Origin: a virus
Lineage: Duplodnaviria > Caudoviricetes
Virus record (IMG/VR): IMGVR_UViG_3300025809_001850
Direction: 5' to 3' (one strand)
DNA length: 64,000 nt
This document shows, piece by piece, positions 3,670 through 43,186 of this stretch. The notes under the pieces are model-generated. The model was not told where the DNA came from and made no database searches. It saw nothing but the letters and a program-made list of their open reading frames with translations. The position numbers were made by a program, and so were the translations under genes. How positions within the stretch are numbered: position 1 is the stretch's first letter; each line of letters begins with the position of its first letter.

Positions 3670-3978
3670 ATGTCTCGCAAAAATAATCCTGATATTATTG
3701 AAATGGAAGGAGTCGTAAAAAAACTTCTTCCAGGAACAATGTTTGATGTAGAATTAAGACAAGGAGACGCAACTACAATGTTACTTTGCTCACTTGCCGG
3801 AAAACTTAAACAACATTTTATTAAGTTGACGGTTGGTGACAAGGTATTGTTGGAGATTAGCAAATACGATACATCAAAGGGTCGTATCACCTATCGTTTG
3901 AAAAACAAAACAAGTTATCACAACTCAAAAAAAGCAGCTCCGTTTCGTGGTGGTGGAGTTGGAAAAAAGAAAAAGTAA
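3670..3978 (+). CDS. infA: translation initiation factor IF-1 with basic C-terminal tail
   Basis: IEMEGVV..LPGTMFDVEL...GKLKQHFIKLTVGDKV.LEISKYDTSKGRITYR. Confidence 0.92.
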   Translation: MSRKNNPDIIEMEGVVKKLLPGTMFDVELRQGDATTMLLCSLAGKLKQHFIKLTVGDKVLLEISKYDTSKGRITYRLKNKTSYHNSKKAAPFRGGGVGKKKK

Positions 3979-3979
3979 C

Positions 3980-5041
3980 TTACTTGGTTTTTTTGTATAA
4001 CTCCAATATACTTTTTTGTTCTATATTTATTTGCTTGGGAAACATTGGTTTTACCATAACATACATATCACCCTTAGTGTGTGAATTTCTCATGTTCGGT
4101 AGACCATAACCAGATACTCTTAATATAGCATCAGGTTGTGTTCCTGGTGGAATTTTTAAATTTACTTTACCATGCAGAGATTTCACAACTTTTGTGGCTC
4201 CTAATATCATATCGTAAAAATCAACTTGTTCTTCGCAAATTAAATGATCACCGTCACGATCAAAGTATTCATCTTTTTTTACATATATTACAGCATACAA
4301 ATCTCCACATTCACCTCCCTTGATGTGATTTCCGTGCTGAGAAACTCGGAGTTTTACACCTGAGTGACACCCTTTGGGTATCTTTATTCTCGTTTCAACT
4401 GTTTCTGTGATAATTCCGTGGCCACTGCATTTCATACAACCACCATGTAGTTCACTGCCCGATCCTTGGCAAGTGGGACACATTTGTTCCATTTGCATAG
4501 GTCCCATTTTACGATATACACTACCCTGACCCCTGCAGGTTTTGCACTGTTTATATGTAGATGTACTTGTTTCTCCTGTGCCACGGCATGAATTGCATTT
4601 TCCGTTTCGTGTATACTTGATTGTTCGGTGACATTCATCTATAATTTCACTTAACTTGACTTCTATATCTATCTTTAAATCACTACCTTGAGACGGTTGT
4701 CTTTGTTTTCTGTTATCAGATGTAAAGAAACTATCAAAATTACCCCCTCCTCCACTAAAAAACGAATTAAACATATCAAATGGATCGTGATGTCGTCCAC
4801 CACCTGAACCAGATTGTTGCTTAAAGGCATCATGACCAAACTGATCGTATTGTGCTTTTTTGTTTGCATCTGATAATACATCATATGCTTCTGAAATCTT
4901 TTTAAATTGTTCCTCGGCCTTGGAATCTCCTTGATTTTTGTCGGGATGCCACTTGATTGCAAGTTTTCTATACGACTTTTTAATTTCGTCTGCTGAAGCA
5001 CTTTTCGTTACGTTTAATATATTGTAGTAATCTTGTTCCAT
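3980..5041 (-). CDS. dnaJ: class A DnaJ chaperone
   Basis: J-domain with HPD, G/F region, four CxxCxGxG repeats and C-terminal domain. Confidence 0.97.
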   Translation of the reverse strand: MEQDYYNILNVTKSASADEIKKSYRKLAIKWHPDKNQGDSKAEEQFKKISEAYDVLSDANKKAQYDQFGHDAFKQQSGSGGGRHHDPFDMFNSFFSGGGGNFDSFFTSDNRKQRQPSQGSDLKIDIEVKLSEIIDECHRTIKYTRNGKCNSCRGTGETSTSTYKQCKTCRGQGSVYRKMGPMQMEQMCPTCQGSGSELHGGCMKCSGHGIITETVETRIKIPKGCHSGVKLRVSQHGNHIKGGECGDLYAVIYVKKDEYFDRDGDHLICEEQVDFYDMILGATKVVKSLHGKVNLKIPPGTQPDAILRVSGYGLPNMRNSHTKGDMYVMVKPMFPKQINIEQKSILELYKKTK

Positions 5042-13942: not shown

Positions 13943-16372
13943 TCAATCGTAGAGATTTTCTACAATTTCACCAAAATTTCTCATAATAATACCAGCACAC
14001 GCATTTGCTTCGTTTTCTATATCACTTCCTGTTTGACCACTATCCACTTCAAGAACTCCAAGTTCATTTTGTTTTTGATGAACTAGTTCATGTGCTAAAC
14101 TTCTGCATACATCTGGAAATGCTCTGCCTTTTGTATATATAGAAATCTCGTTTGTATTAGGATCGTAACAAGCAGCTGTCATGTTCTCGTGCCTCTGTGT
14201 TAAAAGTTTCACAGATACCTTTTCTTTTAATTGCAAAGCTTTTCTTGCAAACTTGATAAACTCATGAACATTATCTTTGTTCATTGCGACTTCGTTTAAT
14301 GATTCTTTTGTATATTTCATATTCATTTCGTTTATATTTGCTCCACCTGTTCTGACAATTTCACGAAAGAACCAACGAGTCCACTCTCCGAGTTTGCCTG
14401 GTCCTTTTACTATATATAGTTTAAATGCTTCTGCAAATGCTTCTTCTGCATTTGTATTTCCGTAACTTGTAATGTGTTCAATTGGAATTTCTTTACCAGG
14501 ACCAACCCATCTATCTGCTAATTTTGTTACAACTTCTTTTCTGTCTTCGGCTGAATAAACTCCTGTCATTTGCAATGCTTTGAACTTAGCTTTGGTCTCG
14601 GCGTTGTCTTCTTTTTTGTCAATGACTCTCAATCCTGCTTTTCTTTTGTGAAGTTTTTCTCCATATTGATTGAAATACTTTTCTACATAATCTTCTACAT
14701 CTTTACGTTCAATAGATACTTTCTTGCTTTTGATTGTATCTTGCCAATGCTTCTTTGCATTAGATGGAACATTACGATACCAAAAACGATGACCAAGTTC
14801 GTGAGTGAATGTATCTTGGGTCATTCCACACCCGTACAACTTGAGCATATCTTTGTTCATATAATACTCACCATTAACCATATCGTTGCTATTATCTGAT
14901 GTTAGACCGAAGTCTAAATCAACGGTTAATCCTTCTATGCACTTTCCGAATCCTGCTTTTTGAATTTTCTTTGACCAATGCTTGATTCCATTTACCAACT
15001 CCTTGAAACTTTTTTCACGACTTGCTTCACCTTGTTCTGTTCCACCTTTTCGTTTGAAGTTATGAATAACCAATTTAACGGGTCCTATTTGTGCTTGTTC
15101 AATTGGTTTCTCTCGTTCTTGATCACCTTCTATTGCGATGTATTGAAGAAGTGCTTTGATTCCCTCACGAAATTGTGATCTGTATCTTCTGATATTGGTT
15201 TCTCGTTCTTTAGCAAGTCTTTGTGGACTTACACGATGCTTTTTATCTATAAAGTCCCACATCTCTGGAAAGTTTCCACCAAGACCTGTAACTGCTCCCC
15301 AACATTTTTCACGAACTTCTTTTTCTTCCCAGGTTTCCATCTTCTTACCACTCGCACCTGTATGTTTATACTGCAAAAAGAATTTGTAAACCCATTGTTC
15401 AAAGTTTTCTTGGAATGTACCAAATGCTCTTCTTACTTTCTTAAAGTCTTTGATTGTTTGTGGGTCTTGACTATTATCACCAATTGATTTATATGCCTTT
15501 GTAAGAACTCTTAAATCCTTTGCCCACTTTTTTACAGAGCTGCTATCAACCTTCACTTTGCTTTCTGAAATGACTTCCGACAACTTTCCTTTTTGTATAT
15601 ACATATATAAACCTGCTAATCGTTTCTTAAACTTCTTGAGATATTTGCTATTGATGTATGTAAGAAAGTCTTTATCAAAGAACTCTACATCAATTGCCCA
15701 ATCTTGAAATGCTTTGTAACTTTCTAATTTTTTCTTTTTAAAGTCAGCAAGAAATTCTGGACGATGTGCGAATCTGTCGGATAGATTTTTCCATACACGA
15801 ATTATTTGAGATTGTCCTGCTTGGTAATATGCATTAAATTCTTCTGGTGTGTTGTAGTATCCTTCTATATCTTGTGTATCTAAGTACTTGGCACTTGTTT
15901 TTCCTAAACCACGACTACGATACCTTAAATGATCAAGAAAGTGTATGTATTCGTGAATGAATGTATCTTTATCAAGACGAGTATCCATATACTTGCCATT
16001 GTAATCACCAAGTAGATTAGCATTTACAATTACACCTTTAAATGATATTCCACCCACTTTCAAACTTTTGTTTGTAAAACCACCTGCGATTGTTACTCCA
16101 CCACGTGATGTACTTTTTGTTGGAATGAAAAATAATACTACCTCACTTAAAGAAGGAAAGTTTTTGTCTATGTCTGTTCCTCTAAGAGCAACACCTTTCC
16201 ATTGTGTAAGTGGTATAAATGGTTTGTTGACTATACTATTCTCACCCTCACCTTCAATTTTATCTTTATGTTTAGTTAAAAATCGCACCACTTTATCATA
16301 TGCTTTCTCGGCAATACCTGTGTAATACATATCTTGCTCTACATTTGCTTCTTTAATATGGGTGCTATTCAT
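13943..16372 (-). CDS. multidomain protein with three HExxH zincin-like motifs
   Basis: FIHEYIH, FTHELGH...EEAFAEAF, LAHELVH...ENEANA; ATG at 16372 preceded by TATATTTAT. Confidence 0.8.
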   Translation of the reverse strand: MNSTHIKEANVEQDMYYTGIAEKAYDKVVRFLTKHKDKIEGEGENSIVNKPFIPLTQWKGVALRGTDIDKNFPSLSEVVLFFIPTKSTSRGGVTIAGGFTNKSLKVGGISFKGVIVNANLLGDYNGKYMDTRLDKDTFIHEYIHFLDHLRYRSRGLGKTSAKYLDTQDIEGYYNTPEEFNAYYQAGQSQIIRVWKNLSDRFAHRPEFLADFKKKKLESYKAFQDWAIDVEFFDKDFLTYINSKYLKKFKKRLAGLYMYIQKGKLSEVISESKVKVDSSSVKKWAKDLRVLTKAYKSIGDNSQDPQTIKDFKKVRRAFGTFQENFEQWVYKFFLQYKHTGASGKKMETWEEKEVREKCWGAVTGLGGNFPEMWDFIDKKHRVSPQRLAKERETNIRRYRSQFREGIKALLQYIAIEGDQEREKPIEQAQIGPVKLVIHNFKRKGGTEQGEASREKSFKELVNGIKHWSKKIQKAGFGKCIEGLTVDLDFGLTSDNSNDMVNGEYYMNKDMLKLYGCGMTQDTFTHELGHRFWYRNVPSNAKKHWQDTIKSKKVSIERKDVEDYVEKYFNQYGEKLHKRKAGLRVIDKKEDNAETKAKFKALQMTGVYSAEDRKEVVTKLADRWVGPGKEIPIEHITSYGNTNAEEAFAEAFKLYIVKGPGKLGEWTRWFFREIVRTGGANINEMNMKYTKESLNEVAMNKDNVHEFIKFARKALQLKEKVSVKLLTQRHENMTAACYDPNTNEISIYTKGRAFPDVCRSLAHELVHQKQNELGVLEVDSGQTGSDIENEANACAGIIMRNFGEIVENLYD

Positions 16373-16401
16373 CAAGTATAAATATATACAATGTTATTAA
16401 A

Positions 16402-16430
16402 TTGACTATTTTAGTCATATCTGACATACT
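16402..16430 (+). promoter_or_regulatory. sigma70-type promoter, leaderless geometry, with inverted repeat over -35
   Basis: TTGACT-N17-CATACT-N6-ATG; TGACTA-TTT-TAGTCA palindrome. Confidence 0.7.
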
Positions 16431-16436
16431 AACATA

Positions 16437-17453
16437 ATGTCTGCTAATGTGAAACCTTTTTTTGAAGACACCACAATACCACATCTTAATTCAATTGTTA
16501 ATGGTGATTGTTATGAACTTTGTAAAGAACTTCCACCAAATTCCATTGATTGTGTGATTACATCACCACCTTATTTTCAACAAAGAGATTATGGAAGTAG
16601 TGTCGGAGAAGAAGAAACAATAGACGAATATATATACTCGTTAACCAAGGTTGTAAAAGAACTTGTAAGAGTTGTTAAACCAACTGGCAGTATTCTGTAT
16701 AATGTCGGTGACAAGTATCTACCCAACGATGGACTTCAACTTATTCCATATAAGTTTGCGGAACACATTAAAAATGAACTTAATTTATATTTGGTGAATG
16801 TTATTCAATGGCATAAAACGAATCCAACACCTCATCAATGTAAAACAAGACTTGTTAATTCTACCGAACCTTTCTTTCACTTTACATTAGAAAAAAGTTA
16901 TTACTATAACAAAGATGACTTTGAAAAAACTGATATTGATTTAAGTTGCAATCGTTCTGATACAAAAGGATTAAAATATCTTGATATGTTGAGTGAATCC
17001 ACTTTATCTGATTCTGAAAAGATATTTGCTGAACAAGAAATCAATAAAGTTATCAATGAATATAGACAAGGTGAATTGTATGACTTTCGTATAAAGATTC
17101 GTGGTGTTCACGCACCTGCGTATGGTGGTCAACAAGGTGGAAGAACAAACCAATTAAAGAACCAAGGATTCACCATCATTCGTATGCACGGACAAAAAAT
17201 GAAAACAGACGTACTAAGTCACGCAGTTGGCAATCACAAAAATACAAATCATTCTGCGATGTATCCAAGTTCTTTGATTGAAAGAATTATTCCGTTGGTA
17301 TGTCCTGAGAATGGAATTATACTTGATCCGTATATGGGAAGTGGAAGTACTGCAATTGCTTCTATGCATACCAATAGAAACTTTATTGGATTTGAACTTA
17401 ATTCTGATTATTGTGATTTAGCAAATAATCGAATAAAAAAGAACCAATCCTAA
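16437..17453 (+). CDS. N4/N6 amino DNA methyltransferase (beta class)
   Basis: ITSPPY near N-terminus; LDPYMGSGST near C-terminus. Confidence 0.92.
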   Translation: MSANVKPFFEDTTIPHLNSIVNGDCYELCKELPPNSIDCVITSPPYFQQRDYGSSVGEEETIDEYIYSLTKVVKELVRVVKPTGSILYNVGDKYLPNDGLQLIPYKFAEHIKNELNLYLVNVIQWHKTNPTPHQCKTRLVNSTEPFFHFTLEKSYYYNKDDFEKTDIDLSCNRSDTKGLKYLDMLSESTLSDSEKIFAEQEINKVINEYRQGELYDFRIKIRGVHAPAYGGQQGGRTNQLKNQGFTIIRMHGQKMKTDVLSHAVGNHKNTNHSAMYPSSLIERIIPLVCPENGIILDPYMGSGSTAIASMHTNRNFIGFELNSDYCDLANNRIKKNQS

Positions 17454-17465
17454 AATTGGTTCTTT
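17438..17465. terminator. hairpin terminator between convergent genes
   Basis: AAAGAACCAAT-CCTAAA-ATTGGTTCTTT. Confidence 0.7.
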
Positions 17466-17487
17466 AATATAACCTTTGGTTTTTGTA

Positions 17488-17604
17488 TTACTCGTTACCG
17501 GTTAGAATATACCAAACCTGTAAGCAAATAATAAAACTAAATGCAACTATTCCACCAAGTAGTTCATAAACTGCGTATAACCTACTTTTTAGATTCTTAT
17601 TCAT
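17488..17604 (-). CDS. 38-aa single-TM microprotein (not in ORF track)
   Basis: MNKNLKSRLYAVYELLGGIVAFSFIICLQVWYILTGNE; ATGA overlap with clamp loader stop. Confidence 0.6.
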   Translation of the reverse strand: MNKNLKSRLYAVYELLGGIVAFSFIICLQVWYILTGNE

Positions 17605-18557
17605 AGTGTTTGAACAATTTGTGCAATGGTTGATGCAAATGTAATTTCTTTATCAACAACTAAACTATCGTGGTAAGTTTGCTGATCAAGCATAATAACA
17701 ATGTTTGCACTTTTACCGGGAGCATACTCATCTACATTATCAAACAAAAACTTGTAAACATCTGTGAAGTCATTTATTTTTTCATTTGCAATAAGTTGAC
17801 GAGCCGTTAACCATGCATTCTTTTTGTCTTTACTTGCATTCTTTAGAATGTCCAACAACTTTAACTTATAGTCACCTTCAATAAGGTCTTCTTTGATAAT
17901 CTCAAGAGTACCATGAATGCTATTCTGTTGAGCATTGTTAATTACCTTACGAATATCAGGATAACCTTTGTTTACAATCAATGCAATATCATCTGGTTGT
18001 GCTTTGATTTCTTGTTTAGCAAGAATCTTGGCAAGATGAATTGCGACATCTTTACGATTAGGAGGAACGATGTTGAATGTTTGACAACGACTGACAATCG
18101 GTTCAATAATCTTTTCGTGGTAATTACAAGTAAGAATAAAACGAGTAGTCATACTAAACTGCTCCATTAAATTTCTTAAAGCAGCCTGAGCATTACCTGT
18201 GAGAAAGTCACACTCGTCAAGCAATACGACTTTAAGATCATTGAATCCCATACTGCTTGCGAACGACTTAATCTTGGTACGCACGGTATCAACATTGTTT
18301 TCGTCACTTGCATTGATATACAAATGATCACACGGAATCTGCTTTGTAATCAACTTACCAAGTGTGGTTTTACCTGTACCTGCTTTTCCATACAAAAGCA
18401 AATGTGGAATGTCACGTGACTCAATCCACGAAGCAGCTCGTTTCTTTAAAGGTTCGTTTCCAATATAATCAGAAAGGTCTTTGGGTCGATATTTCTCGAC
18501 CCAAAGACTATTTTCCGATTCAACTGGAGACTTTGTTGCTTCTTCTAAAAAATTCAT
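17601..18557 (-). CDS. gp44: clamp loader AAA+ subunit (gp44/RFC-like)
   Basis: WVEKYRP, GKAGTGKT, NASDE, LDECD and SRC. Confidence 0.95.
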   Translation of the reverse strand: MNFLEEATKSPVESENSLWVEKYRPKDLSDYIGNEPLKKRAASWIESRDIPHLLLYGKAGTGKTTLGKLITKQIPCDHLYINASDENNVDTVRTKIKSFASSMGFNDLKVVLLDECDFLTGNAQAALRNLMEQFSMTTRFILTCNYHEKIIEPIVSRCQTFNIVPPNRKDVAIHLAKILAKQEIKAQPDDIALIVNKGYPDIRKVINNAQQNSIHGTLEIIKEDLIEGDYKLKLLDILKNASKDKKNAWLTARQLIANEKINDFTDVYKFLFDNVDEYAPGKSANIVIMLDQQTYHDSLVVDKEITFASTIAQIVQTL

Positions 18558-19282
18558 TAATCGGTTGTTTGAATTTCAACCAAGTAATAACTGCTACGGA
18601 AGTCACCGACTTCAAACTCAATGCTTGCAATTCCCTTGGAACTGACATTGAGAACGCTCTTTTCAGAGTCACTATTTGCATTAAGAATTTCCTTGAAATA
18701 CTTCGAGGAAAAACTAATGGGGTCTGTGAGAGTGCTTGACCCTTCGTTAATCGCACTTAAAGAAACACGATTACTATTGATTGTGGAATAACCAATTACC
18801 AACTGAATTCCGTCTTTTGAAGGAACAATGGTAAATGTATCACAATCACTTAATGCACTTGCAGAACGAACAAACTTCTTCGCGAAGTCGTTGCTGAAAG
18901 GAATTTGCAGATCATATTCTGGTAAATCCTTCAATGCAGGAACATTAGGAATTACTGCTAAGTCAGCAAGCATGAAGTTTACACTTGTTGTATCGTCTGA
19001 TACACTAACACTAACGTTCTTTTCGTTTTTCTCAACGACTTCAACATTAATGTCATCACCAACAACTGCTAAAAGTTGCTTTAACTTTGCAGTATCATAA
19101 ACACCAATTTCACCTTCACCGAGTTCAAAGTCTTTTGTAGAAACTTTGCCGAGAACACTTTTGTCATCGGTAATGAAGGTGGTTTCGCAAACGTTGTCTC
19201 CGTTGGTATTCCATTTAACTGATTCCACGTTACCATTAAGGTTGTAACGAGAAATGAATTGTAGTACTTTATCTTTTTTCAT
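18557..19282 (-). CDS. gp45: sliding clamp (gp45/PCNA-like)
   Basis: 241 aa, beta-rich, directly upstream of clamp loader; GIYD-like GVYDTAKL. Confidence 0.85.
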   Translation of the reverse strand: MKKDKVLQFISRYNLNGNVESVKWNTNGDNVCETTFITDDKSVLGKVSTKDFELGEGEIGVYDTAKLKQLLAVVGDDINVEVVEKNEKNVSVSVSDDTTSVNFMLADLAVIPNVPALKDLPEYDLQIPFSNDFAKKFVRSASALSDCDTFTIVPSKDGIQLVIGYSTINSNRVSLSAINEGSSTLTDPISFSSKYFKEILNANSDSEKSVLNVSSKGIASIEFEVGDFRSSYYLVEIQTTD

Positions 19283-19997: not shown

Positions 19998-21116
19998 CTA
20001 TTTCAATAATTGATCTGGATTGAGTGGAATTAAATCATTAACAACGAACTCTCCGTCTTTGCGAATAAGTTCATCATCAAAGTAAATTTCACCTCCACCA
20101 TAGTCTGGTCGTTGAATCTTGACCATATCCCAATGAACCTGTGAATCATTTCCATTGCTTGCATCGTCATAGCATTGACCAGGTGTAAAGTGAAAACTTC
20201 CACCAATCTTTTCATCAAATAGAATATCACGCATTGGATGTGTAACATATGGATTGAATCCAATAGCAAACTCACCAATGTATCTTGCTCCGGCATCACT
20301 ATCAAGAATTTCGTTTAGTGCCTCGGTGCTTGCATCACTATTTGCGGTTGCGTCCACAATTTTTCCATTCTTGAATTCCAACCGAATTCCATCAAAGTCT
20401 GTTCCACGATAAATTGTCGGAGCATTAAACTGAATGTGTCCCTGGACACTATCCTTGATTGGACAACTGAATACTTCTCCATCCGGAATGTTATGAGTTC
20501 CACCACAAGCAACTGCACCTATATCTTTAATAGAGAAACGCAAATCTGTATCATCACCTTTAATGTGAATTTTATCTGCGTTTTGCATTCTTGTTTGAAG
20601 GTTACTCATACCCGGATTAAACTTGGCATAATCAAATGTACATACATCAAAGTAAAAGTTCTCAAATGCTTCGGTACTCATATTTGCTTGCTGTGCCATT
20701 GCAGGAGTAGGCCATCTTAGAATACACCACTTGGTTTGATTTACACGATAATCAAGATAAGGTTTGGTGATCTTGGACATCATTGTTTTGATGTCTGCAT
20801 CTACATCACTTGTTTCGTATATATTATGAGAACCTGCGATAGCAATATAAGCATCCATTTCTTGAATCTTAGGCATACTAAACTTCATAAAAATTTCCAT
20901 TTGCTCTTTGGTTGCGTGAAGCATCACCTCACGACCTATACGACTTTGTGATGTTTGTACAAAAGGTATTCCTCCATATTCACGAACTGCACGAACGAGT
21001 GCAATCGTCATATTTTCCGGCACTTCTGTGTTGTCTATTAATACCTTTTCTCCTTTCTGTAAAGACACACTATGTCTTACAAGAAGGTCTGCTAATTTTG
21101 TATAGTTCTGTTCCAT
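19998..21116 (-). CDS. aminopeptidase, peptidase family M29
   Basis: [26 protein letters not shown] and SQVHWD. Confidence 0.93.
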
Positions 21117-21156: not shown

Positions 21157-22602
21157 TTAAAATGCAAAGAATTCTTTGCTTTTATTTTTATCACTTGCTT
21201 GTGTAGGACTTTCCGCATCATTTACTCGTGTTTTAGCAATAATAGCATAATCCTTTTCTTTTTCAATTCCAATATATTTTCTATCAAGCATTTTAGCCGC
21301 AATACAAGTTGTTCCACTTCCAACAAACGGATCAACGACCACATCATTCTCACGACTTCCAAGTGTTATCAAGTAACTCATTAGTTCAATCGGTTTAACG
21401 GTTGGATGAACATTTTGTTTTTCCGTGACAAATCTACCAGTAACATCGTTATCGATTTTGCTATTGCTCATATCTTCTGCATTTCTTCTTCCTGGCATTG
21501 AAGAACTTTTCTTTTTAGGAAGATGTTCAAGACCTTTGTTTTTTTCTGCTTTGCTTGCTTTTGCAACAATCATAAAAGGAAAAGTCTTTTGAACACTTTC
21601 GGGTAATTTATGTATTTGTGATTTCCACCAAGAATCCAAATCGTAAAAACGAGAAAACGATCCTTCGTCTCCGTAAGTTCTTCCGGCAGGTTTACCTGTG
21701 CTTTCTTGCCAAATACCACCAGATGCACTTCCACTATCTGTGTGTTTTCCTTTGCTTCGTTTTACTCCATCATTAAGTACATCATCTTGTACAATTAAGT
21801 TAGCTGCGAATCTTCCGTCTGGTATAGCAGATTCATCGTATTCTATTTTTTCGTTTCCTGTTTGATAAAAAGATTCAGCATTACTACCAGTTCTATTGCC
21901 ACTATACGAACCACCTTTCAAAAGTCTACAATCTTTTTCGTAAGGAATTCTGCAATCATCTAACCAAGTAATTCCTTTACCATTTTTCATTGCTTGCTCA
22001 ATCGTGGTTTTTTCTGTAATTGGTTTCATTGCAACAAGTACAACTTCTACCGCAGGTTTTGGTTGGTAACCTACATAAGAACCTTCAAGTGCGTTTGCTT
22101 CATCGGATGCAGGTTCAGTTATTTCTTTCACGGACATATCATTATAGTCCGACCGATTTTCAGATTCTCTCCAATTTGTATTTATTGCAGATGATGAACG
22201 GGATTTCCCATCATACTTTGAACGTGGGTCTATTGTTCCTGTTATCTTTCGTGTCTTTCCAAGTTTTTTATCAACTGCTTTTCCAACATTTGTTGCTTTT
22301 GGAAATCCCGTTGCGTATGTCCAATAAATCGGAGTGAATCCAATATTGAATCCTGCGTCTTCTAAACGAACCATCATACGACTTTGTACATCTGAACGTG
22401 GTGCTGACATAACAAAGCAGAATCCTCCTGGTTTCAAAACTCGTAAACACTCTTGCCAAATTTCTAATGCAGGAACTGCTTTGTCCCAATCACGATTCAT
22501 AAACGAGTATCCATAAGGTGGGTCTGTACACACCAAGTCTACCGATTCATCCTCAAGTTTCTTGAGGACTTTTAAACTATCTCCATTGATTATCTTATTC
22601 AT
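21157..22602 (-). CDS. N6/N4 DNA methyltransferase with large insertion
   Basis: TDPPY, HPTVKP and DPFVGSGTT; start moved to MNKIINGD (22602). Confidence 0.92.
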   Translation of the reverse strand: MNKIINGDSLKVLKKLEDESVDLVCTDPPYGYSFMNRDWDKAVPALEIWQECLRVLKPGGFCFVMSAPRSDVQSRMMVRLEDAGFNIGFTPIYWTYATGFPKATNVGKAVDKKLGKTRKITGTIDPRSKYDGKSRSSSAINTNWRESENRSDYNDMSVKEITEPASDEANALEGSYVGYQPKPAVEVVLVAMKPITEKTTIEQAMKNGKGITWLDDCRIPYEKDCRLLKGGSYSGNRTGSNAESFYQTGNEKIEYDESAIPDGRFAANLIVQDDVLNDGVKRSKGKHTDSGSASGGIWQESTGKPAGRTYGDEGSFSRFYDLDSWWKSQIHKLPESVQKTFPFMIVAKASKAEKNKGLEHLPKKKSSSMPGRRNAEDMSNSKIDNDVTGRFVTEKQNVHPTVKPIELMSYLITLGSRENDVVVDPFVGSGTTCIAAKMLDRKYIGIEKEKDYAIIAKTRVNDAESPTQASDKNKSKEFFAF

Positions 22603-23494
22603 TAAAGTCAAAAAATTTATTTGATTGTACACGCAAGTCATCAAGTGAGCAATAGTCAGGAACTTCATACTCTCCTTCTTTGCGGAATACCATAACGTAT
22701 TCGTGTATCTTGCTTGTGTATCTTTTGCTTGCTACCTTACCTGCTTGCAACGGAGCAAATGGACTGATGTTCTTCATTATGATTGTATCGTGGTGAATCA
22801 ACTTCTCTTTGGTAAACAAAGAAATCAAGTCAGAATGAAACGAACGAAATCCACTACCTTTGGGACATCTCCAATCACCGACAACCCATACACAGAATGC
22901 TCCTGGTTTCAGTACACGATTAATGTGGTATCCACAATAACCGATTTGCTTCAAAAACTTTTCGTAAGTTTCGCAATCACTTAATTGATTTTTCGTACTT
23001 TCATACTCTTCAAGATTATGATACGGAGGACAAGTAAACACCAGATCAGCAGTTTCATTTTGTGTGTGAAGCATTTCTGTTCCATCACAATTAAAAAGTT
23101 TAGGCGATACCCCCAACTTTTTAAAATGCTCCGTAACTCGTTTATATGTCGTTGGAGAAATTTCGTAACCTTCGTATTGCCTTTCCATCTTGGATGCCAC
23201 TACCGCACGGGTAGCACGACCTGCGAAGGGGTCTACAACCACACTTCCCTTCATGCTCCAGTAACGAAGTATCTGCTCTGCTACTCCTGCGTGGAACTCA
23301 CTAAACTTTAATCCAGGAAGATACTTGGCATCATCACTTCGTCTGCTTTCGTTTTCTCCGTCATCAAGATATGCTTCTTTCCAAGATGCCTTCGACTCTT
23401 TGGTTGGTTCAAGAATACTCATAGGCAACCAACCGAATTGCTCATCGATTCGACAATCGTTTCTAATGGGTAATACTTGTTTATATACCTTCAT
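22595..23494 (-). CDS. amino DNA methyltransferase (CPPY variant)
   Basis: VDPFAGRAT motif I then FTCPPY motif IV. Confidence 0.85.
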   Translation of the reverse strand: MKVYKQVLPIRNDCRIDEQFGWLPMSILEPTKESKASWKEAYLDDGENESRRSDDAKYLPGLKFSEFHAGVAEQILRYWSMKGSVVVDPFAGRATRAVVASKMERQYEGYEISPTTYKRVTEHFKKLGVSPKLFNCDGTEMLHTQNETADLVFTCPPYHNLEEYESTKNQLSDCETYEKFLKQIGYCGYHINRVLKPGAFCVWVVGDWRCPKGSGFRSFHSDLISLFTKEKLIHHDTIIMKNISPFAPLQAGKVASKRYTSKIHEYVMVFRKEGEYEVPDYCSLDDLRVQSNKFFDFNE

Positions 23495-26001
23495 TAAAAG
23501 GAGAAGAACTTCTGGGCAGTTGCAAGATTCTCACTTGCAAAGTCCCAATTAAGTGCTTGGTAAAAATCACGGAGTTTTCCTTCAAGTTCTCGCTCAAACA
23601 ACTTGTCCTTATCCGCATACTTCTCAATAAACTCCATAAGTTCAGGTGGGTCTTCGTATCCACGAAACGCAAGAGCATCTAAACCAAGTTCATTGTTCTT
23701 TAAATAAATCCACTTTATCTTTTCTCCGTTACGAATAGGTTCTGCTTGAATCTTAAACTTCTTGATAAACTGATTATGAATAATACTTGCTTTAACGTGA
23801 GCAGGTGTACTCTTCGCACACTCACCAACAACCGCACCTTTATCCATCATCTTTAAATACTTGGTTACATTTTTAACTGCACTTGTTTTTGCGATGTCTT
23901 GAACCGACTCATTTTTGACTTGTCGTTTAAGAGCAACGATTTTGTCATCAATTTCTTGTTTTGGAACATCCTTCAAAATGTCTTTAAGAATCTCTGTCAT
24001 AAACGCACGGAATCGTGTGGGGTAACTACTACGCACCACATCAAGACCTTTAACTTCCAATTCATCACAAGTAACACCGTTGTTGTTGATAATCCATTGT
24101 GCATATCGTTTCTTTGCCAACCAAATACTTGCTTTGGAAATAACTTCTTGTTTAATGTCATAACGATGTTCTTCAATATTAAAGAAACGTTTTGCCATCA
24201 CATCATAACTTTTGTTGATAAAATTCTGTACATTACCTGCGACCTCTAAAATAGCAGCTGCCATTTCATCATCATTCTTTACATCAACATTGGGCATTGT
24301 TTTTTCTACGATAGGCAATGCTGAAAAGAATACCGAGTCGGTATCAATGTAAATACAATGATCTTCGGTATCACCGAGAGTTTTATTGTAATAGTGATTC
24401 GCAATCTTGCGACTGAACTTAATCACGGACACACCGGTGGTTGTAACTGCTTCTGCATTATCTACATCGTAAAAACGAAAGATAGGCAAACCGAGAACAC
24501 CATACAAAGAATTAAGAAGAATCTTTTGTACGTGTTGTCTTCTTTTATAGAACACATACTTGGCGTCGTCACCTGCGTTACCATATTCTTTCATTTTATC
24601 TTTGAATTCAACTCGTTGATTAAACCATTGCTCAAGAATCGCAGGAATAAGTCCTACTTTTTCTTTGGTATACATTACACCATTGCTACTAATAGCAAGA
24701 TTGTTTTCCTTCAAAAATGTTTTGAATTCATCTGCTGAATATACATCTCCACGAAACCCAACTTCGGTTTGTTCGCCATCACAGAAATCTTCGGGACTCC
24801 AATTATCAACGACACCCACTTTAGTTTCAGGAGAAATATTCGTGGACATAATGATAGAAGGATACAGAGATGTCAAATCCAAATCAAACACCCACTTGTA
24901 TTTACCTGGTGTAGGAGCAGCCACATACGCACCACTAAACTTTTTTGATCCATCACCTTTAATCTCATTGAATTTGTCGCGACCATCTGGATCTTTATTT
25001 GGAGCAACAAGATTGTGTCTGCGTAAATATGTAAGCAACGCACCCTCAAGATAACGAGACGAAAACAAAATATCTTCATAAGGAACATGACCGACATGAC
25101 AAATGCTACGAGTCAACTCGATGAGCTCCATCTTTTTGTCAATCTCCACAACAATCTTTACGTCATTCAAATTGTATTCAATAAACTTCTCGATGTCCGA
25201 GGAAAATAGATCATCAAGATTACCTTCATATTCAATTTTTCCTATACCAACTTCTTTGCGACCAATTGAATCGAGACGATAACTTGGTTCAACTGAGTAT
25301 GTAAAGTTTTTGTACAACACAAGATAATCCAAGCAACTAACACCTGCAATCACGATTCGTTTCTTGAATGGATGAAAGTATGCGTGGCCAATCGGACTCA
25401 AACGATTTGCTTCTTCTTGTCCTAACACTCTTGCAAGTCTGCGATACAAATAAGGAACGTCAAATCCATCAATGTTCCAACCTGTTAATATTGTCGGACT
25501 AATCTCTTGATAAAAATCAAGAAAATGAGAAAGTAATGCTCGTTCATTATCATAAGAATAAACTGATACGTCATCATTAGAGTAATTGGTGATCTTGTCT
25601 TCTTTATCAAGAATCAACACCACATAATTATTGGTGCAACTATCGTGCCACGCAATAGCAGTAACGGGATTGTTTGCTTTTTCTGTATCAGGTAAATCAC
25701 CTTCCATACTCACCTCAATATCAAAATTCATAACGCAATGACCGGTGCTTGGTTCATCATCGTCTTCGTACAAATCAATTAGATTACGAGTTTCAATCGG
25801 CACATCCGATTCAAACAGACCTGTATCTTCATACCTATACTTTGTTACCTTTTCTAACTTGTCACCATACATACTGCGATACATTCCGTTCGGAGACTTT
25901 TTGTATGCGTATGGTTTATTCTTGAATGTTACGAGACCTTTTTTATCGTCCCACAGATAGACCGTATGATCTTTTTTATTTACGAATATGTTTTGATACA
26001 T
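23494..26001 (-). CDS. gp43: family B DNA polymerase with 3'-5' exonuclease
   Basis: FDIE, GWNIDGFD, DLTSLYPS, KILLNSLYG and YIDTDS; no intein. Confidence 0.98.
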   Translation of the reverse strand: MYQNIFVNKKDHTVYLWDDKKGLVTFKNKPYAYKKSPNGMYRSMYGDKLEKVTKYRYEDTGLFESDVPIETRNLIDLYEDDDEPSTGHCVMNFDIEVSMEGDLPDTEKANNPVTAIAWHDSCTNNYVVLILDKEDKITNYSNDDVSVYSYDNERALLSHFLDFYQEISPTILTGWNIDGFDVPYLYRRLARVLGQEEANRLSPIGHAYFHPFKKRIVIAGVSCLDYLVLYKNFTYSVEPSYRLDSIGRKEVGIGKIEYEGNLDDLFSSDIEKFIEYNLNDVKIVVEIDKKMELIELTRSICHVGHVPYEDILFSSRYLEGALLTYLRRHNLVAPNKDPDGRDKFNEIKGDGSKKFSGAYVAAPTPGKYKWVFDLDLTSLYPSIIMSTNISPETKVGVVDNWSPEDFCDGEQTEVGFRGDVYSADEFKTFLKENNLAISSNGVMYTKEKVGLIPAILEQWFNQRVEFKDKMKEYGNAGDDAKYVFYKRRQHVQKILLNSLYGVLGLPIFRFYDVDNAEAVTTTGVSVIKFSRKIANHYYNKTLGDTEDHCIYIDTDSVFFSALPIVEKTMPNVDVKNDDEMAAAILEVAGNVQNFINKSYDVMAKRFFNIEEHRYDIKQEVISKASIWLAKKRYAQWIINNNGVTCDELEVKGLDVVRSSYPTRFRAFMTEILKDILKDVPKQEIDDKIVALKRQVKNESVQDIAKTSAVKNVTKYLKMMDKGAVVGECAKSTPAHVKASIIHNQFIKKFKIQAEPIRNGEKIKWIYLKNNELGLDALAFRGYEDPPELMEFIEKYADKDKLFERELEGKLRDFYQALNWDFASENLATAQKFFSF

Positions 26002-28290: not shown

Positions 28291-29517
28291 TCAATTCTTT
28301 TTCCATATCCAAATGGGTTCTGCGAATGCAACATTCTTTGTTTCTTCGGTAATTGTTTTTAGGTCTTCTGAAAAATATTCACTTTTTGCATTACCTGCTC
28401 CACCAGAGTTGAATCGTTTTGTCATTTCCATTCCGATACAACCTTGGTATTGTAATCCACATGATTTAATAAAGTCGTTCATTGGATTAGTAATTTCTAC
28501 ATAGTCGTTGATTGGTGCGTTAAATACGTCTGCGATATTGACTGCAAGAATTCCACCAGACTTTAATGTGGGAATAAGTTTCTGAATAGTTGCGTGTAAA
28601 AAATTAACATTCCAATCATCTATCTTTTTGTAACGAACCCACGATTGAGTATCATCTTCCGAATACTTCTCTGTGTTAAAATACGGTGGACTTGTAAAAA
28701 TTGTATCAAAGAAATTTTCGTATTTAGAATAATCCACATCTTCTGCTGGACTATCAATCAATTCAACTTCTCTGTTTTGTTCAAAGAAGGTGGAATACTT
28801 TTTGTAGAACTCAACTTGCTTTTGATAATTGGGGTGATTGTTGCTATTGGGATCAATACCCACATAATGTTCGGTAGTTTCACCTGTATAAAATCCTGCT
28901 AATCTATCACCCCATCCTGCACTAAAGTCTAATACATTTCTGCTTTTAAAGTGATCGTAAAATGCTTTTGCTACTGCCGGTTTGAATTGTGATGCGACAT
29001 ACTTACGAAGAGTTGTAGCAACACGCAGAGTATTAACATCAACACGATTAAGAACTTTATCTAATGTCCAATAAGCACGAACGATTGTTTTGATTCCTTT
29101 AACCGTTTGCCATGTCTTCCACCCACTTGGTGTTCGTGTCCAATCTACTTTCCAACGATTTTCCACATGAAACGGGTTGGAAGCATTGTTACCCGAGTTG
29201 TTTCTTTTCAATAGAAACTGAGAATCTTTGTAGTTTAAATGATAGTTGCTTTTTCTTTCGTTGCGAGGAAACCACTTCTTTTCAACGAGAACATCGTTGT
29301 GCTTGATTCCTTTTAACTTGTTTAAACTATCAAGAGTTTGTTTATCACTTATCTCTGGCAACGGAGCTGAATAAGTGTGCAATGCTTTTGCTAATTCTTC
29401 TACGACATCTTCTTTCTCATATCTTTGCATGATGTCTTTCCATTCATCTTCTTCAATAAGAAGATACGGTTTCATATCGTAGAACTTTTTGAATTGTTCT
29501 TTTAGTTGGTTATTCAT
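28291..29517 (-). CDS. amino DNA methyltransferase (motif I before SPPY)
   Basis: LDFSAGWGDRL, GIDPN and FTSPPYFN; start moved to ATG 29517. Confidence 0.9.
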   Translation of the reverse strand: MNNQLKEQFKKFYDMKPYLLIEEDEWKDIMQRYEKEDVVEELAKALHTYSAPLPEISDKQTLDSLNKLKGIKHNDVLVEKKWFPRNERKSNYHLNYKDSQFLLKRNNSGNNASNPFHVENRWKVDWTRTPSGWKTWQTVKGIKTIVRAYWTLDKVLNRVDVNTLRVATTLRKYVASQFKPAVAKAFYDHFKSRNVLDFSAGWGDRLAGFYTGETTEHYVGIDPNSNNHPNYQKQVEFYKKYSTFFEQNREVELIDSPAEDVDYSKYENFFDTIFTSPPYFNTEKYSEDDTQSWVRYKKIDDWNVNFLHATIQKLIPTLKSGGILAVNIADVFNAPINDYVEITNPMNDFIKSCGLQYQGCIGMEMTKRFNSGGAGNAKSEYFSEDLKTITEETKNVAFAEPIWIWKKN

Positions 29518-29539
29518 AAACCAAAACAAAATTTAATTG

Positions 29540-30928: not shown

Positions 30929-31348
30929 TTATGCAAAGAAGATTGTATACGAATCATCATCTGTGGTAATAGACATATGATTGTATATCCAATTTTCAGT
31001 TTGTGAGGTTTTAATGAAGTTTGCATATGCTTCTTCTGTTTTTTCAATTTTGAAAAACTTTCCCGATACTTCATTTGTCTCGTACTTGCTAATAAATTGC
31101 TTGAGATCAATTGCATTCGGATTTTCCGTGAGGAAACCTTCCGTGAATCGTGAAACTGATTCTGTGTTTTGGTTGTAGTGAGTTATTATACTCTCACGAC
31201 AACTGCACTCAGGATCAACCGAAAAACTCAATGCATTGTCTGTCATATCAGGAAATGAATCAATGTATTGGTTCATATACAACTCAGATGTCAATATCAA
31301 CTCAAGTATCAAATTGCTTCCGTAAGAATTTATATTATTTGATTTCAT
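30929..31348 (-). CDS. hypothetical protein
   Basis: 139-aa ORF preceded by TTGACT-N17-TAAGTT-N6-ATG. Confidence 0.7.
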   Translation of the reverse strand: MKSNNINSYGSNLILELILTSELYMNQYIDSFPDMTDNALSFSVDPECSCRESIITHYNQNTESVSRFTEGFLTENPNAIDLKQFISKYETNEVSGKFFKIEKTEEAYANFIKTSQTENWIYNHMSITTDDDSYTIFFA

Positions 31349-31429: not shown

Positions 31430-32038
31430 ATGTATCAATATGTAAGTTCATCTGAAAATTTAGTTCTTTTATTGACTCATTACTGGACTCCTCTGAATGT
31501 GACATCTGTCAAAGAGGGTTTAAAGAAATTGATGGGTGCTAAAGAACGATTTCATAAAACACGGCCAAAGGTTGTAGCTGTTGCTAGTGATGGAAATACG
31601 TGTGATTGGGATACTTGGTTGGAATATAAACATGGATTTTATTCCGAACAACCATTTATTCGTTCAGTTAATCATGTTATACCAGTTCCCACTATATTGC
31701 TCACAACTGCAAACTTCACATATAATGCGAAACGGAAACCATCATTAAAGTATTTGTACAAGAAATATGAAGGATTGTGTCAAATATGTGGAAACCACTT
31801 TCCTCAAAATCAACTAACTATTGAACACATCAAACCAAAAAGTAAAGGTGGTGACAACGATTATTTCAATTTAACACTAACCTGTGTAAAGTGTAACTCT
31901 CGCAAAGGAAGTATATTTCCTTATTATGATTTTAAAGGAGAGATTCTTAAAGCAGAACCACCAAAACCTTTTTATGAAGTTGGAAATGTTATACGAGAAG
32001 AATGGAAACCATTTCTTTTTAAAAATTCTTCTTTTTAA
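31430..32038 (+). CDS. HNH endonuclease
   Basis: CQICG...TIEHIKPKSKGG...NLTLTCVKCNSRKG. Confidence 0.92.
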   Translation: MYQYVSSSENLVLLLTHYWTPLNVTSVKEGLKKLMGAKERFHKTRPKVVAVASDGNTCDWDTWLEYKHGFYSEQPFIRSVNHVIPVPTILLTTANFTYNAKRKPSLKYLYKKYEGLCQICGNHFPQNQLTIEHIKPKSKGGDNDYFNLTLTCVKCNSRKGSIFPYYDFKGEILKAEPPKPFYEVGNVIREEWKPFLFKNSSF

Positions 32039-40021: not shown

Positions 40022-41599
40022 TTATTTTTTGTAAAACACAAAGATTGGTTCGTACTTGTGCAACTCTCCGTTTATTTGACAACAATTTTTGATTGTGGTT
40101 CTATCTCCACGCATTGTTGCCATAAGCATTTTAAGAGTTTCAACATACTCAAGACCATATTCTTGTAAAATGTTTTTGCTATCTTCTTCAAGTGGTATAT
40201 ATCCACCACCGTGAGTGATGTCCGCGATATTCCACAATAAATACCTGTCGTGTCTTAAATACTGAGATGCAGTTCTTAATGTGGGACGAAGAAAGTTTTC
40301 TTTCCAATCTTCATACGATGGAAACTTCTTGAAACTTTGTGTGTCATCTGATGAGTATTGTTCACGATTAAAATATGGTGGACTGGTAAATACTAAATCA
40401 AATGTTCCTTTATATTTTTCAAATTCTTTGTTTTGGTGAATGACTTCACTTCCATCTTGAAACAACTGATATGTATTACGGTGTCCAAAAAATGGATTAC
40501 CACCATTTGTTTTGTCGTTGAAAAAATCTGCTACATATTCGTATCTTGATTTATTGAGTTCACTAATATAGTTGTCTGTATTTGGGTCTGTTCCGACATA
40601 ATGTATCTGACGATCATCTATGCTCATAGCACCAAGGATGCGACCACCCCAACCTGCACTTGGATCATATACGGTTAGATCATTTTTGTTTTCAATGTGG
40701 TCTGTATATTTTTGATAAACGAACTTTGCAGTCAATGGTGGAAAGTTTACGGCAGGATGTCTTCCAAGTCCAAGACGAAGTGCTTCCATTGCTGATGGAA
40801 AGATGGTTGATGTTTTGTTGTAGTAACGAATACTAAATTTATATTGAGTTTCATCAAGTGTATCAAGTTTATCAAAGTCTGTGTTAAAGTCTGTTGTTCT
40901 TTCTAAATTGCTGATATTGTTTTGTTCAAGCAAGCCCTCTTTATACAACCTAAGTATTTGTTGAGCAGATAACAATAAATGATTTTCTTCATAGTCTTCA
41001 AACTTTCTTTCTGTGAAAAGTTCAATAATCCAAAAGTCATTGTCGGGATGTAAATGTTTTTCTGCTATAAAGTTTCTAATCCAAGTTTCTCCATCGTTTG
41101 TTGGGTATGGTACTTCATCATCGTTTTTTCTGATTGTTTTTCCGTGAGCAAAAAAAGCATCTCGTCTAATTGTTCTTCTCATCGTGACGTGGAAACTATC
41201 TCTTTTATCGGGATCAACAAAATAGTCGTAAATGCTTTCTGAATGAGTACCTGTTTGCAATGCCATTTTCGTTTTAAGCATTGTTGGAAAAAACTGATCA
41301 ATTACAGTTGCGAACTTGTTAAAGTTTTTTACAATGGTGTTTGATTTATCAAGTTCATCAAGATGTAAAAACTTGCTAACATCATATCTTTGTAGTTTAT
41401 TAAATTGTGCAATAATATCTTTTTCTATTTTACCACTTCTCGGTGGAATTCCTTTTTCATTCCAAGTGGTAACAATATAATATCTTAAATCATCCAACCA
41501 AATTTCAAGTTCCTCTTTGCTTTTTAAAAGTAACTGATGGAAGGTTATGTTTTGCTCCCAATCTACGAGGTTGTTTTTCTCGTAAAAATATTTCTTCAT
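40022..41599 (-). CDS. long amino-MTase paralogue 2
   Basis: YDPSAGWGGR, GTDPN and FTSPPYFN; start MKKYFYEKNN at 41599 (ATGA overlap). Confidence 0.88.
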   Translation of the reverse strand: MKKYFYEKNNLVDWEQNITFHQLLLKSKEELEIWLDDLRYYIVTTWNEKGIPPRSGKIEKDIIAQFNKLQRYDVSKFLHLDELDKSNTIVKNFNKFATVIDQFFPTMLKTKMALQTGTHSESIYDYFVDPDKRDSFHVTMRRTIRRDAFFAHGKTIRKNDDEVPYPTNDGETWIRNFIAEKHLHPDNDFWIIELFTERKFEDYEENHLLLSAQQILRLYKEGLLEQNNISNLERTTDFNTDFDKLDTLDETQYKFSIRYYNKTSTIFPSAMEALRLGLGRHPAVNFPPLTAKFVYQKYTDHIENKNDLTVYDPSAGWGGRILGAMSIDDRQIHYVGTDPNTDNYISELNKSRYEYVADFFNDKTNGGNPFFGHRNTYQLFQDGSEVIHQNKEFEKYKGTFDLVFTSPPYFNREQYSSDDTQSFKKFPSYEDWKENFLRPTLRTASQYLRHDRYLLWNIADITHGGGYIPLEEDSKNILQEYGLEYVETLKMLMATMRGDRTTIKNCCQINGELHKYEPIFVFYKK

Positions 41600-43185
41600 T
41601 TCTTGTAAAACACAAAGATAGGTTCGTACTTTTGTAACTCTCCGTTTATCTTGCAACAATTCTTAACCGTTTCTGCTTTAACACCACGCATTGTTGTCAT
41701 AAGCATTTTAAGAGTTTCAACATACTCAAGTCCGTATTCCGCAAGAATATCACGACTATCTTTTTCTAATGGCATAAATCCATCTCCGTCTGCGATGTCT
41801 GCGATATTCCAAAGCAAGTATCTATCGTTCTTTAAATACTCTGCCGCCGTTTTCAAAGTAGGACGAAGAAAATTGTCTCTCCAATCTGCATACTCTGGAA
41901 ACTTTTTGAAACTCTGAGATTCATCTGCTGAATATTGCTCACGATTAAAATATGGTGGACTTGTAAAAACCAAATCAAGTTTGCCTTTATATTTTTGGAA
42001 ACTTGGGTTATTGTGAATTTCTTCACTTCCATTTTGATAAACATCATATGTGTTGCGATGACCAAAGAATGGATTACCTCCATTTGTTTTATCATTAAAA
42101 AAGTCTGCAAGATATTCGTAACGACTTTTGCCAAGTTCATCAATATAATTGTCGGTGTTTGGATCAGTTCCGATATAATGAATTTGACGATCATGTACTG
42201 ACATAGCACCAAGAATGCGACCACCCCATCCTGCACTTGGATCATATATATGAAGATCACTTTTATCTTGAATGTGGTCTGTGTACTTCTGATAAATGTA
42301 CTTTGCAGTCAACGGAGGAAAGTTTACTGCTGGTTGACTAAGACCCAACTTGAATGCTTCCATTGCTGATGGAAATATTCTTGAGTTTTTGTCGTAATAT
42401 CTAATGCTAAAACGAAACTCTACTTCTTTGTCATCTTCAATAACGACATCATTTATATTTTCAATATCGTCACCGAAGTTTGCAGTTCTTTCTAAATTTC
42501 TGATGTTGTTTATTTCAAGCAAACCTTCTTTGTGTAATTTTCTTATTTGCTTTGCAGTAAGCATCAAACTACTTTCTTCGTATGAATCAAACTTCTTTTC
42601 GGTGAACAACTCAATAATCCAAAAGTCGTTGTGTGGATGAAGATGTTTCTCTTTGACAAAATTACGAACCCACTCTTCTGCGTTTTCAGTTGGACACGGA
42701 ACATCATAATCATTTTTCTTGATTGTTCTTCCATGAGCATAAAATGAATCTCTTCGCACGGTTCGTCTCATGCAAGTGTGAAAACTTTCTCGTTTCTCTG
42801 GATTAGCAAAGCAATCATAAACACTCCAAGATGTATGCTTACTTGAACCTATTTTAGTTTTAAGCATTGTTGGAAAAAACTGATCAACTACGGTTGCGAA
42901 CTTGTTAAAGTTTTTGACGATGGTATTTGTTCCGTCCATTTCGTCTTTGTGCTGAAACTTATATACATTGTATCCTGATAACTTGTTTAAGTTGGCAATA
43001 ATATCTTTTTCGTTTTTACCAGTTCTCGGAGGAAGACCCTCATTATCCCAAGTGTCTACAATATAAGTTCTAAGTTCGTCTATCCACTTGGTTAACTCTG
43101 TACCATTCTTTTGTAATAGTTCATGGAATGTAATATTAACCCTACATTCTGCAAGATTGTTTTTTTCGTAAAAGTATTTTTTCAT
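41596..43185 (-). CDS. long amino-MTase paralogue 1
   Basis: Same motifs; AVNFPPLTAK; start MKKYFYEKNN at 43185. Confidence 0.88.
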   Translation of the reverse strand: MKKYFYEKNNLAECRVNITFHELLQKNGTELTKWIDELRTYIVDTWDNEGLPPRTGKNEKDIIANLNKLSGYNVYKFQHKDEMDGTNTIVKNFNKFATVVDQFFPTMLKTKIGSSKHTSWSVYDCFANPEKRESFHTCMRRTVRRDSFYAHGRTIKKNDYDVPCPTENAEEWVRNFVKEKHLHPHNDFWIIELFTEKKFDSYEESSLMLTAKQIRKLHKEGLLEINNIRNLERTANFGDDIENINDVVIEDDKEVEFRFSIRYYDKNSRIFPSAMEAFKLGLSQPAVNFPPLTAKYIYQKYTDHIQDKSDLHIYDPSAGWGGRILGAMSVHDRQIHYIGTDPNTDNYIDELGKSRYEYLADFFNDKTNGGNPFFGHRNTYDVYQNGSEEIHNNPSFQKYKGKLDLVFTSPPYFNREQYSADESQSFKKFPEYADWRDNFLRPTLKTAAEYLKNDRYLLWNIADIADGDGFMPLEKDSRDILAEYGLEYVETLKMLMTTMRGVKAETVKNCCKINGELQKYEPIFVFYKK

Positions 43186-43186
43186 A

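Follow-up and report, generated by a model that had tools for sequence, protein, structure and literature searches.

The stretch of DNA analysed here, referred to as the window, comprises 64,000 nucleotides of an uncultured, T4-like virus of the Caudoviricetes (IMG/VR record IMGVR_UViG_3300025809_001850), and its minus strand carries, at positions 21157–26001, three consecutive genes for a DNA polymerase and two DNA methyltransferases whose products end in closely similar peptides of the form [K/E]FFx[F/Y]. The source record is a single contig of 134.8 kb with a G+C content of about 35%, rated 65% complete by CheckV. A megablast search of the region against phage genomes returned no DNA-level match; judged by its polymerase, Microcystis phage Mel-JY01 comes closest among named phages, at 47% identity, and in its 26-kb polymerase region the tail is found on the polymerase only.

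The first of the three genes in the direction of transcription, Pol (23494–26001, minus strand), encodes a family B DNA polymerase of the T4 gp43 type with 835 amino acids (Pfam DNA_pol_B, 2.6e-40, together with an exonuclease domain; PHROG 262, 2e-187). It is followed on the same strand by MT_B (22595–23494, 299 amino acids) and MT_A (21157–22602, 481 amino acids), both of which are N6_N4-type DNA methyltransferases matching Pfam PF01555 (2e-21 and 2e-31, or 77 and 110 bits, respectively, against a gathering cutoff of 26.7). The true start of MT_A is the ATG at 22602, as the resulting 481 residues are the length of an identical database protein. The start codon of MT_B shares bases with the stop codon of Pol (TAATG), and that of MT_A with the final two codons of MT_B (ATGAATAA); the three genes are therefore translationally coupled. 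Further along the strand there follow an M29 aminopeptidase, two small open reading frames (ORFs), a 241-residue ORF (18557–19282) and the gene of a gp44-like AAA+ protein, the large subunit of a clamp loader (17601–18557, minus; PHROG 168 ‘clamp loader of DNA polymerase’, 3e-75; Pfam AAA and DNA_pol3_delta2).

The likeness of the three protein ends, which had been pointed out in a preliminary description of this DNA, is borne out by the translations: Pol ends in ATAQKFFSF, MT_B in QSNKFFDFNE and MT_A in NKSKEFFAF. The putative clamp-binding peptides are accordingly AQKFFSF in Pol (23497–23517), NKFFDFNE in MT_B (22598–22621) and SKEFFAF in MT_A (21160–21180), all on the minus strand. The pattern FFxF occurs just five times in the 145 ORFs (43,136 residues), and three of the five occurrences lie within the last nine residues of Pol, MT_B and MT_A; under a random model 0.08 such proteins are expected, and three were reached in none of 20,000 simulations (P < 1e-4). 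It is not the case that the FF dipeptide is common per se, since 72 are seen where 86 are expected, and 28 of the 59 proteins of at least 250 residues contain one. Moreover, the three tails are written in different codons, which rules out a DNA-level repeat or regulatory element as the cause of their likeness and argues that selection has acted at the level of the peptide.

Conservation of the tails across the respective families, which had been proposed as a check, is pronounced. The end of Pol, [K/Q/E]FFxF, is retained in 81 of 81 homologues (80 IMG/VR loci at 52–98% identity, and Mel-JY01 at 47%), while the ten residues preceding it vary. In MT_A the end K[S/A]x[D/E/Q]FFx[F/L/Y] is found in 118 of the 120 best homologues (57–100% identity), the two exceptions appearing to be truncated or frameshifted, and is placed after the last helix and a variable linker of 7–16 residues. 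The MT_B family has a conserved core ending in LVFRKxGEYE, then a variable linker of 12–20 residues with insertions and deletions, then a di-aromatic end, which is present in nearly all of the 119 homologues listed and takes the forms FFx[F/Y], KFF, NFW, KFWE, WW, EFFG and YW. In the AlphaFold2 (AF2) model of MT_B the core is confident to about residue 280 and the tail has a predicted local distance difference test score (pLDDT) below 50, from which it follows that the motif is not buried; burial of the tails, which would have spoken against a role in binding, is likewise not suggested by the variable linkers of MT_A and MT_B. Distant homologues of MT_B in cultured phages align to the core only, and the tail is therefore an addition specific to this clade. 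In other words, in both methyltransferases the peptide stands at or near the C-terminus behind a flexible and variable linker, as T4-type tails do, and is the same as that of the cognate polymerase (QKFFSF in Pol, KEFFAF in MT_A, NKFFDF in MT_B).

The distribution of such ends was examined in 160 related loci, in which genes were called simply, clustered at 60% identity and scored for a di-aromatic C-terminus. All nine polymerase clusters and 14 of the 18 N6_N4 methyltransferase clusters carry one, as against none of the eight clamp clusters, none of the five clamp-loader clusters and 37 of the 769 clusters of all other genes (Fisher odds ratio 69, p 9e-15, by cluster); in two of the four methyltransferase clusters scored as tail-less, an FF or FY is nevertheless present close to the end. 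The tailed clusters among the other genes include DNA modifiers of unrelated folds, encoded near the polymerase in related phages. These are Mom-family proteins ending in EINFW, NLYF or TENFW (L027:33–836, L060:5798–6592, L136:4511–5311 and L180:1473–2273), a TET-associated glycosyltransferase (TAGT) ending in NNKFW (L022:522–1331), an alpha-glucosyltransferase (AGT)-like protein ending in LEDFFG (L154:2984–4354), a GT2 gene directly after the polymerase with the end KVNYWN (L093:3379–4143), a P-loop+GNAT protein ending in NKFFQF (L057:5667–6839) and a GHKL ATPase ending in DFFTFN (L035:12121–13683). The presence of these ends on unrelated enzymes that modify or act on DNA suggests, at the level of sequence, a wider set of clamp clients. 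Two relatives were considered as whole proteomes. In a close relative of 170 kb the annotated carriers are Pol, MT_B and MT_A only, together with three unannotated ORFs of 60–202 residues; in a relative of 207 kb rated complete the carriers are Pol, a Mom-family protein (by Pfam) and ten others, one an FkbM-type methyltransferase and the rest unannotated.

Within contigs that hold both genes, the tail of the MT_B-family protein resembles that of the polymerase. The pairs, given as polymerase and methyltransferase, are QKFFAF with KFFSYE, SEWFAF with EKFFEF, LDSFFG with LGAFFN, KKFFSF with KKFFAL and EKFFSF with QNFFSF; in nine loci from two lineages, polymerases ending in IERFF-COOH are accompanied by methyltransferases ending in SKWW-COOH or EKFL-COOH. 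The di-aromatic pair is, to judge from these ends, the common core of the polymerase and methyltransferase tails. A polymerase was also sought in four records whose MT_B homologues end in AEFFS/K or SFFDFE, and none was found, these records being just 27–41% complete. A separate instance is provided by the cultured coliphage RB49, in which gp43 ends in VASLTDLFDI and the annotated DNA methyltransferase RB49p143 in SGTLSDLFDI (NC_005066, RB49p143 at 74465–75304 and gp43 at 15793–18471; loci L187 and L184). DLFDI followed by a stop codon occurs at two sites only in the RB49 genome, namely at the ends of these two genes; the gene of RB49p143 lies between baseplate genes 8 and 9, and the Dam methyltransferase of RB49 has no such tail. 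That an unrelated tail has been copied in the same manner in a distant clade argues for a partner which the methyltransferases share with the polymerase.

The candidate for this partner is the product of the 241-residue ORF at 18557–19282 (minus strand), which adjoins the clamp loader gene, gives weak matches to PHROG 947 ‘processivity factor’ and is predicted to be a sliding clamp protomer of the PCNA/gp45 fold. Its AF2 model (pLDDT 90.5, predicted template modelling score 0.89) has the two-domain architecture expected of such a protomer and is matched by Foldseek to PCNA chains with template modelling scores of 0.68–0.75 (E about 1e-13); a three-copy model has a pLDDT of about 90. Complex prediction, which had likewise been proposed as a check, was carried out with three copies of the clamp and MT_A residues 464–503, as numbered in the model, in three runs and with three controls. 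The scores were 0.69, 0.12 and 0.69 (median 0.69), as against 0.02 for the best control; the pLDDT of the partner is at least 35 and the agreement of contacts between runs at least 13%. In calibration, 58 of 80 solved complexes attained the mark, as did 2 of 110 mismatched pairs; these figures apply to the present job only approximately, since it used an alignment of our own and contained multiple copies. In the best run, MT_A residues 491–503 contact clamp residues 37–44, 115–120, 216–218 and 233–238, which belong to the interdomain loop and the C-terminal strand, and the lowest expected errors are those of F500 and F501, which contact residues 37–44, 115–118 (the loop), 217–218 and 233–235. 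Among 30 clamp homologues, 14 of the 19 residues at the interface show little or no variation, as compared with 59 of 222 elsewhere (p 6e-5). The pass in the complex prediction may be explained by likeness to solved PCNA–peptide complexes. Overall, the model is supportive, not proof, of the placement of the tail in the conserved pocket of the clamp.

Taken together, these observations make it probable that the [K/E]FFx[F/Y] tails are clamp-binding short linear motifs which tether the methyltransferases to the phage clamp. The preliminary description had proposed that a clamp-type C-terminal peptide is common to Pol and the two methyltransferases and couples DNA modification to the replisome; the peptide has since gained support from conservation, exposure, enrichment, co-variation and the complex model, and binding itself stays putative. 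In mechanistic terms, the tails of MT_A and MT_B, each carried by a flexible and rapidly evolving linker that follows an intact N6_N4 methyltransferase core, would imitate the clamp-binding tail of the T4-type polymerase encoded by the phage itself, and would insert into the hydrophobic pocket beneath the interdomain loop of the PCNA-like clamp at 18557–19282. The neighbouring clamp loader would load this clamp onto phage DNA, and the methyltransferases would be tethered either to a free protomer of the trimer beside Pol or to clamps left behind the fork. From there they could scan the new duplex in one dimension, such that sites would be methylated soon after synthesis, and translational coupling to Pol would supply both methyltransferases once replication starts. 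We infer, in this regard, the physical binding, the toolbelt arrangement, any faster or fuller modification and any preference for phage over host DNA; the stronger proposal of the preliminary description, that only replicating phage DNA is modified, is purely conjectural.

Several points weigh against a clamp tether. The motif departs both from the T4 consensus SLDFL[FY] and from the PCNA-interacting protein (PIP) box. No tailed analogue of gp55 or gp33 was found in this genome or in the two relatives fetched whole; with T4 gp55 as the query there is no homologue in this record (CheckV 65%) or in five related records (G001–G005), three of which are rated 100% complete, and late transcription in the clade may depend on a very divergent or a different factor. 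The match between polymerase and modifier tails is not strict, as phages with a polymerase ending in FFxF also have modifiers ending in KFF, EFFG or NFW. Two other methyltransferase-like families of the window, ORF 28291 and a pair of twin genes, have a C-terminal tail in none of their nine clusters. In the complex prediction, one of the three runs fell to the low score given above, and as little as 13% of the contacts were in agreement between runs. Finally, the contact between T4 alpha-glucosyltransferase (alpha-GT) and gp45 has been judged not to determine modification levels (PMC13216743), and such a contact may thus be of minor importance in vivo.

That the tails are conserved, enriched on DNA modifiers and co-variant with those of the polymerase establishes no more than that a partner is shared, and not which partner it is; the tail could in principle dock onto some other hub of the replisome, with the single-strand-binding protein, the helicase/primase and the clamp loader as candidates. 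This is unlikely, as the tail of Pol is positionally equivalent to the tail of T4 and RB69 gp43, whose partner is the clamp (PMC2988020), and as the complex model puts the MT_A tail in the most conserved pocket of the clamp, with controls of 0.02 or less. Another conceivable reading is that the tail is a C-terminal degradation or sorting tag, for instance a signal for a phage ClpP-like protease or for packaging, that limits the enzymes in time or relocates them. Hydrophobic C-termini can indeed be degrons, and an M29 aminopeptidase is encoded just downstream, but the same tail is borne by a replicative polymerase in 81 of 81 relatives, at what is known to be the position of a clamp anchor, the carriers are almost exclusively enzymes that act on DNA, and RB49 has copied in like fashion an unrelated, acidic LxDLFDI tail, all of which leaves a tag of this kind very improbable.

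Equally slight is the probability that the tails are structural or oligomerisation elements which have come to resemble one another by convergence in an AT-rich genome with common TTT codons. The base composition of about 35% G+C and a phenylalanine content of 4.5% of residues would favour such convergence, but FF dipeptides are, as noted above, not over-represented, and a structural element would hardly be expected to be predicted flexible, to follow linkers that vary in length and sequence, to stand on four unrelated enzyme folds and to track the polymerase tail across clades. Each of these three explanations is considered less likely than the tethering of the methyltransferases to the clamp.

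The remaining FF sites that the preliminary description had grouped with the tails are weaker cases. STFFEQ in ORF 28291 (28291–29529, minus strand; residue 246) and GNPFFG in the twin methyltransferase-like genes (40022–41659 and 41596–43194, minus strand; residues 387 and 373) are internal sites. In these paralogous proteins and their homologues a di-aromatic pair, [FW][FW], is conserved and occupies a loop of variable length about 160 residues before the C-terminus, and the proteins themselves end right after the last core strand (EPIWIWKKN, EPIFVFYKK) without a tail. GNPFFG was considered as a divergent catalytic motif IV (NPPY), and this reading was dropped, the homologues having KFFDV or NPFWG in the variable-length loop. 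GNFFES in ORF 44475, the GNAT/dioxygenase gene, has no homologue in the fetched loci. Clamp motifs in ORF 28291, in the twins and in the GNAT/dioxygenase gene are unsupported.

A third N6_N4 methyltransferase, encoded by ORF 16437 (16437–17453), has the peptide VKPFFE at residues 5–10 of its N-terminus (MSANVKPFFED; 16449–16466, plus strand), which is at best a tentative N-terminal version of the motif. A relative at 72% identity has EKFFKE at the same place, so that the FF pair is shared; it is absent from a relative at 80% identity and from 117 other, mostly cellular homologues. The sequence evidence for this site is no more than suggestive. The 117 homologues (P0127–P0243), which have about 50% identity to ORF 16437, are mostly on cellular contigs of megabase size. 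As an observation in its own right, 67 of them have LF within the last nine residues (for example LRLFEKK, QQQQKLF, LSLFGGK and PRLFEGK), as against a background of 1.9%. These ends resemble the motif by which bacterial proteins bind the beta clamp, and the phage protein of ORF 16437 has lost the LF end. The literature search yielded no paper that connects DNA methyltransferases of bacteria with the beta clamp.

Three other features of the window may be recorded. A 139-residue ORF of no known family (30929–31348, minus strand) ends in TIFFA, with VVFFA, IIFFA and VIFFA in relatives; the end could mark a small clamp client or could simply be a terminal strand. This and other small ORFs with FF-type ends, among them an ORF at genome positions 3788–4180, upstream of the window, have no Pfam or PHROG family. 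The aminopeptidase of the M29 (thermophilic) type (19998–21116, minus strand) is encoded within the replication module, with the methyltransferases on one side and the clamp genes on the other. An ORF for an HNH endonuclease, which may be of the homing kind (31430–32038, plus strand; Pfam HNH_5 and HNH), lies close to the genes for replication and modification.

Phages must modify a fast-replicating genome fully enough to escape host restriction, and a polymerase-type clamp tail on the methyltransferases would be a simple physical answer to the question of how the modifiers keep pace with the fork. The idea of the clamp as a toolbelt, so far applied to replication, repair and late transcription in T4, would be extended to DNA modification. 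A broader proposal, which we put forward tentatively and with somewhat less than even confidence, is that clamps are a general toolbelt for post-replicative DNA modification and that unrelated modifiers have repeatedly acquired the clamp peptide of the resident replicase, T4-like phages and bacteria each in their own way. Such a proposal would cover the N6_N4 methyltransferases, Mom, TAGT, the alpha-glucosyltransferase-like enzymes and the GNAT fusion, with tails of the phage-polymerase type on the phage enzymes and LF tails of the beta-clamp type on the cellular homologues, the latter hinting that the same logic may hold for bacterial orphan methyltransferases and the beta clamp. If it is true, modification would be aimed at DNA loaded with a particular clamp, and phage DNA would be separated from host DNA by this means. 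For annotation, a simple rule suggests itself, in that comparison of a protein's C-terminus with the tail of its own polymerase may reveal clamp clients in uncultured phages.

The closest known counterparts of the tails are those of T4 and RB69. The C-terminal 11-mer of RB69 gp43 has been co-crystallised with the RB69 clamp, and the clamp-binding ends of T4 gp43, gp33 and gp55 are interchangeable between clients (PMC2988020). As in those proteins, the peptide here is short, hydrophobic and C-terminal, follows a divergent flexible linker and is common to the polymerase and other proposed clients of a presumably trimeric clamp. The tail of Pol is also at the homologous position: the alignment of its thumb with RB69 gp43 (903 residues) runs to residue 892, after which 11 residues remain in RB69 and 13 in Pol. 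The sequence is different, with [K/E]FFx[F/Y] in place of SLDFL[F/Y] (the T4 tails read SLDFLFG in gp43 and SLDFLYEAND in gp55), such that the T4 consensus does not describe it, and the additional clients are DNA methyltransferases, where those of T4 are transcription factors. Within T4 itself, alpha-GT co-purifies with gp45 (Sommer et al. 2004; PMC13216743) and has been proposed to modify DNA concomitantly with replication (PMC13216743), and it is in this sense a phage DNA-modifying enzyme that binds the phage clamp. Unlike MT_A and MT_B, however, it is a glycosyltransferase and ends in EQFDIITK, with no C-terminal motif like that of its polymerase; indeed, neither the alpha- nor the beta-glucosyltransferase of T4 has a di-aromatic end.

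In animals, the parallel is with DNMT1, which binds PCNA by a tether that raises the efficiency of methylation on newly replicated DNA (PMC9690074). In both cases a DNA methyltransferase is paired with a clamp of the PCNA fold through a short motif with a di-aromatic core, the binding being predicted in the case of the phage enzymes. DNMT1 differs in that it is a eukaryotic maintenance C5 enzyme and in that it uses a canonical PIP box, Qxx[ILM]xx[FY][FY], placed internally or at the N-terminus. The likeness to PIP boxes drawn in the preliminary description does not extend beyond the FF pair: neither the glutamine six residues before the first aromatic nor the aliphatic residue three before it is present in the tails, Pol having its Q two residues before FF, MT_A having K and S at the two positions and MT_B R and S. 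The bacterial beta-clamp motif (QL[SD]LF or QxxLxL) was also considered and does not fit the phage tails.

A literature search for DNA methyltransferases of phages or bacteria that carry a clamp-binding motif or tail found no report of one, nor was any publication on the tail of RB49p143 found. A different manner of coupling a modifier to a partner that slides on or loads onto DNA is known from phage modification enzymes that are fused to, or depend on, ParB (PMC13229309), and distant homologues of MT_B in cultured phages are annotated as ParB-domain fusions. There, the partner is the CTP-dependent ParB clamp, and the coupling is made by domain fusion or through a separate partner and not by a polymerase-like peptide. 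RB49p143 of the Krischvirus RB49 is nearer in principle, as its end TLSDLFDI copies the tail SLTDLFDI of its own gp43. It is unlike MT_A and MT_B in its unrelated tail sequence, in belonging to a different methyltransferase family and in having its gene elsewhere than behind that of the polymerase; being cultured and tractable, RB49 nonetheless offers a system in which the same principle can be studied.

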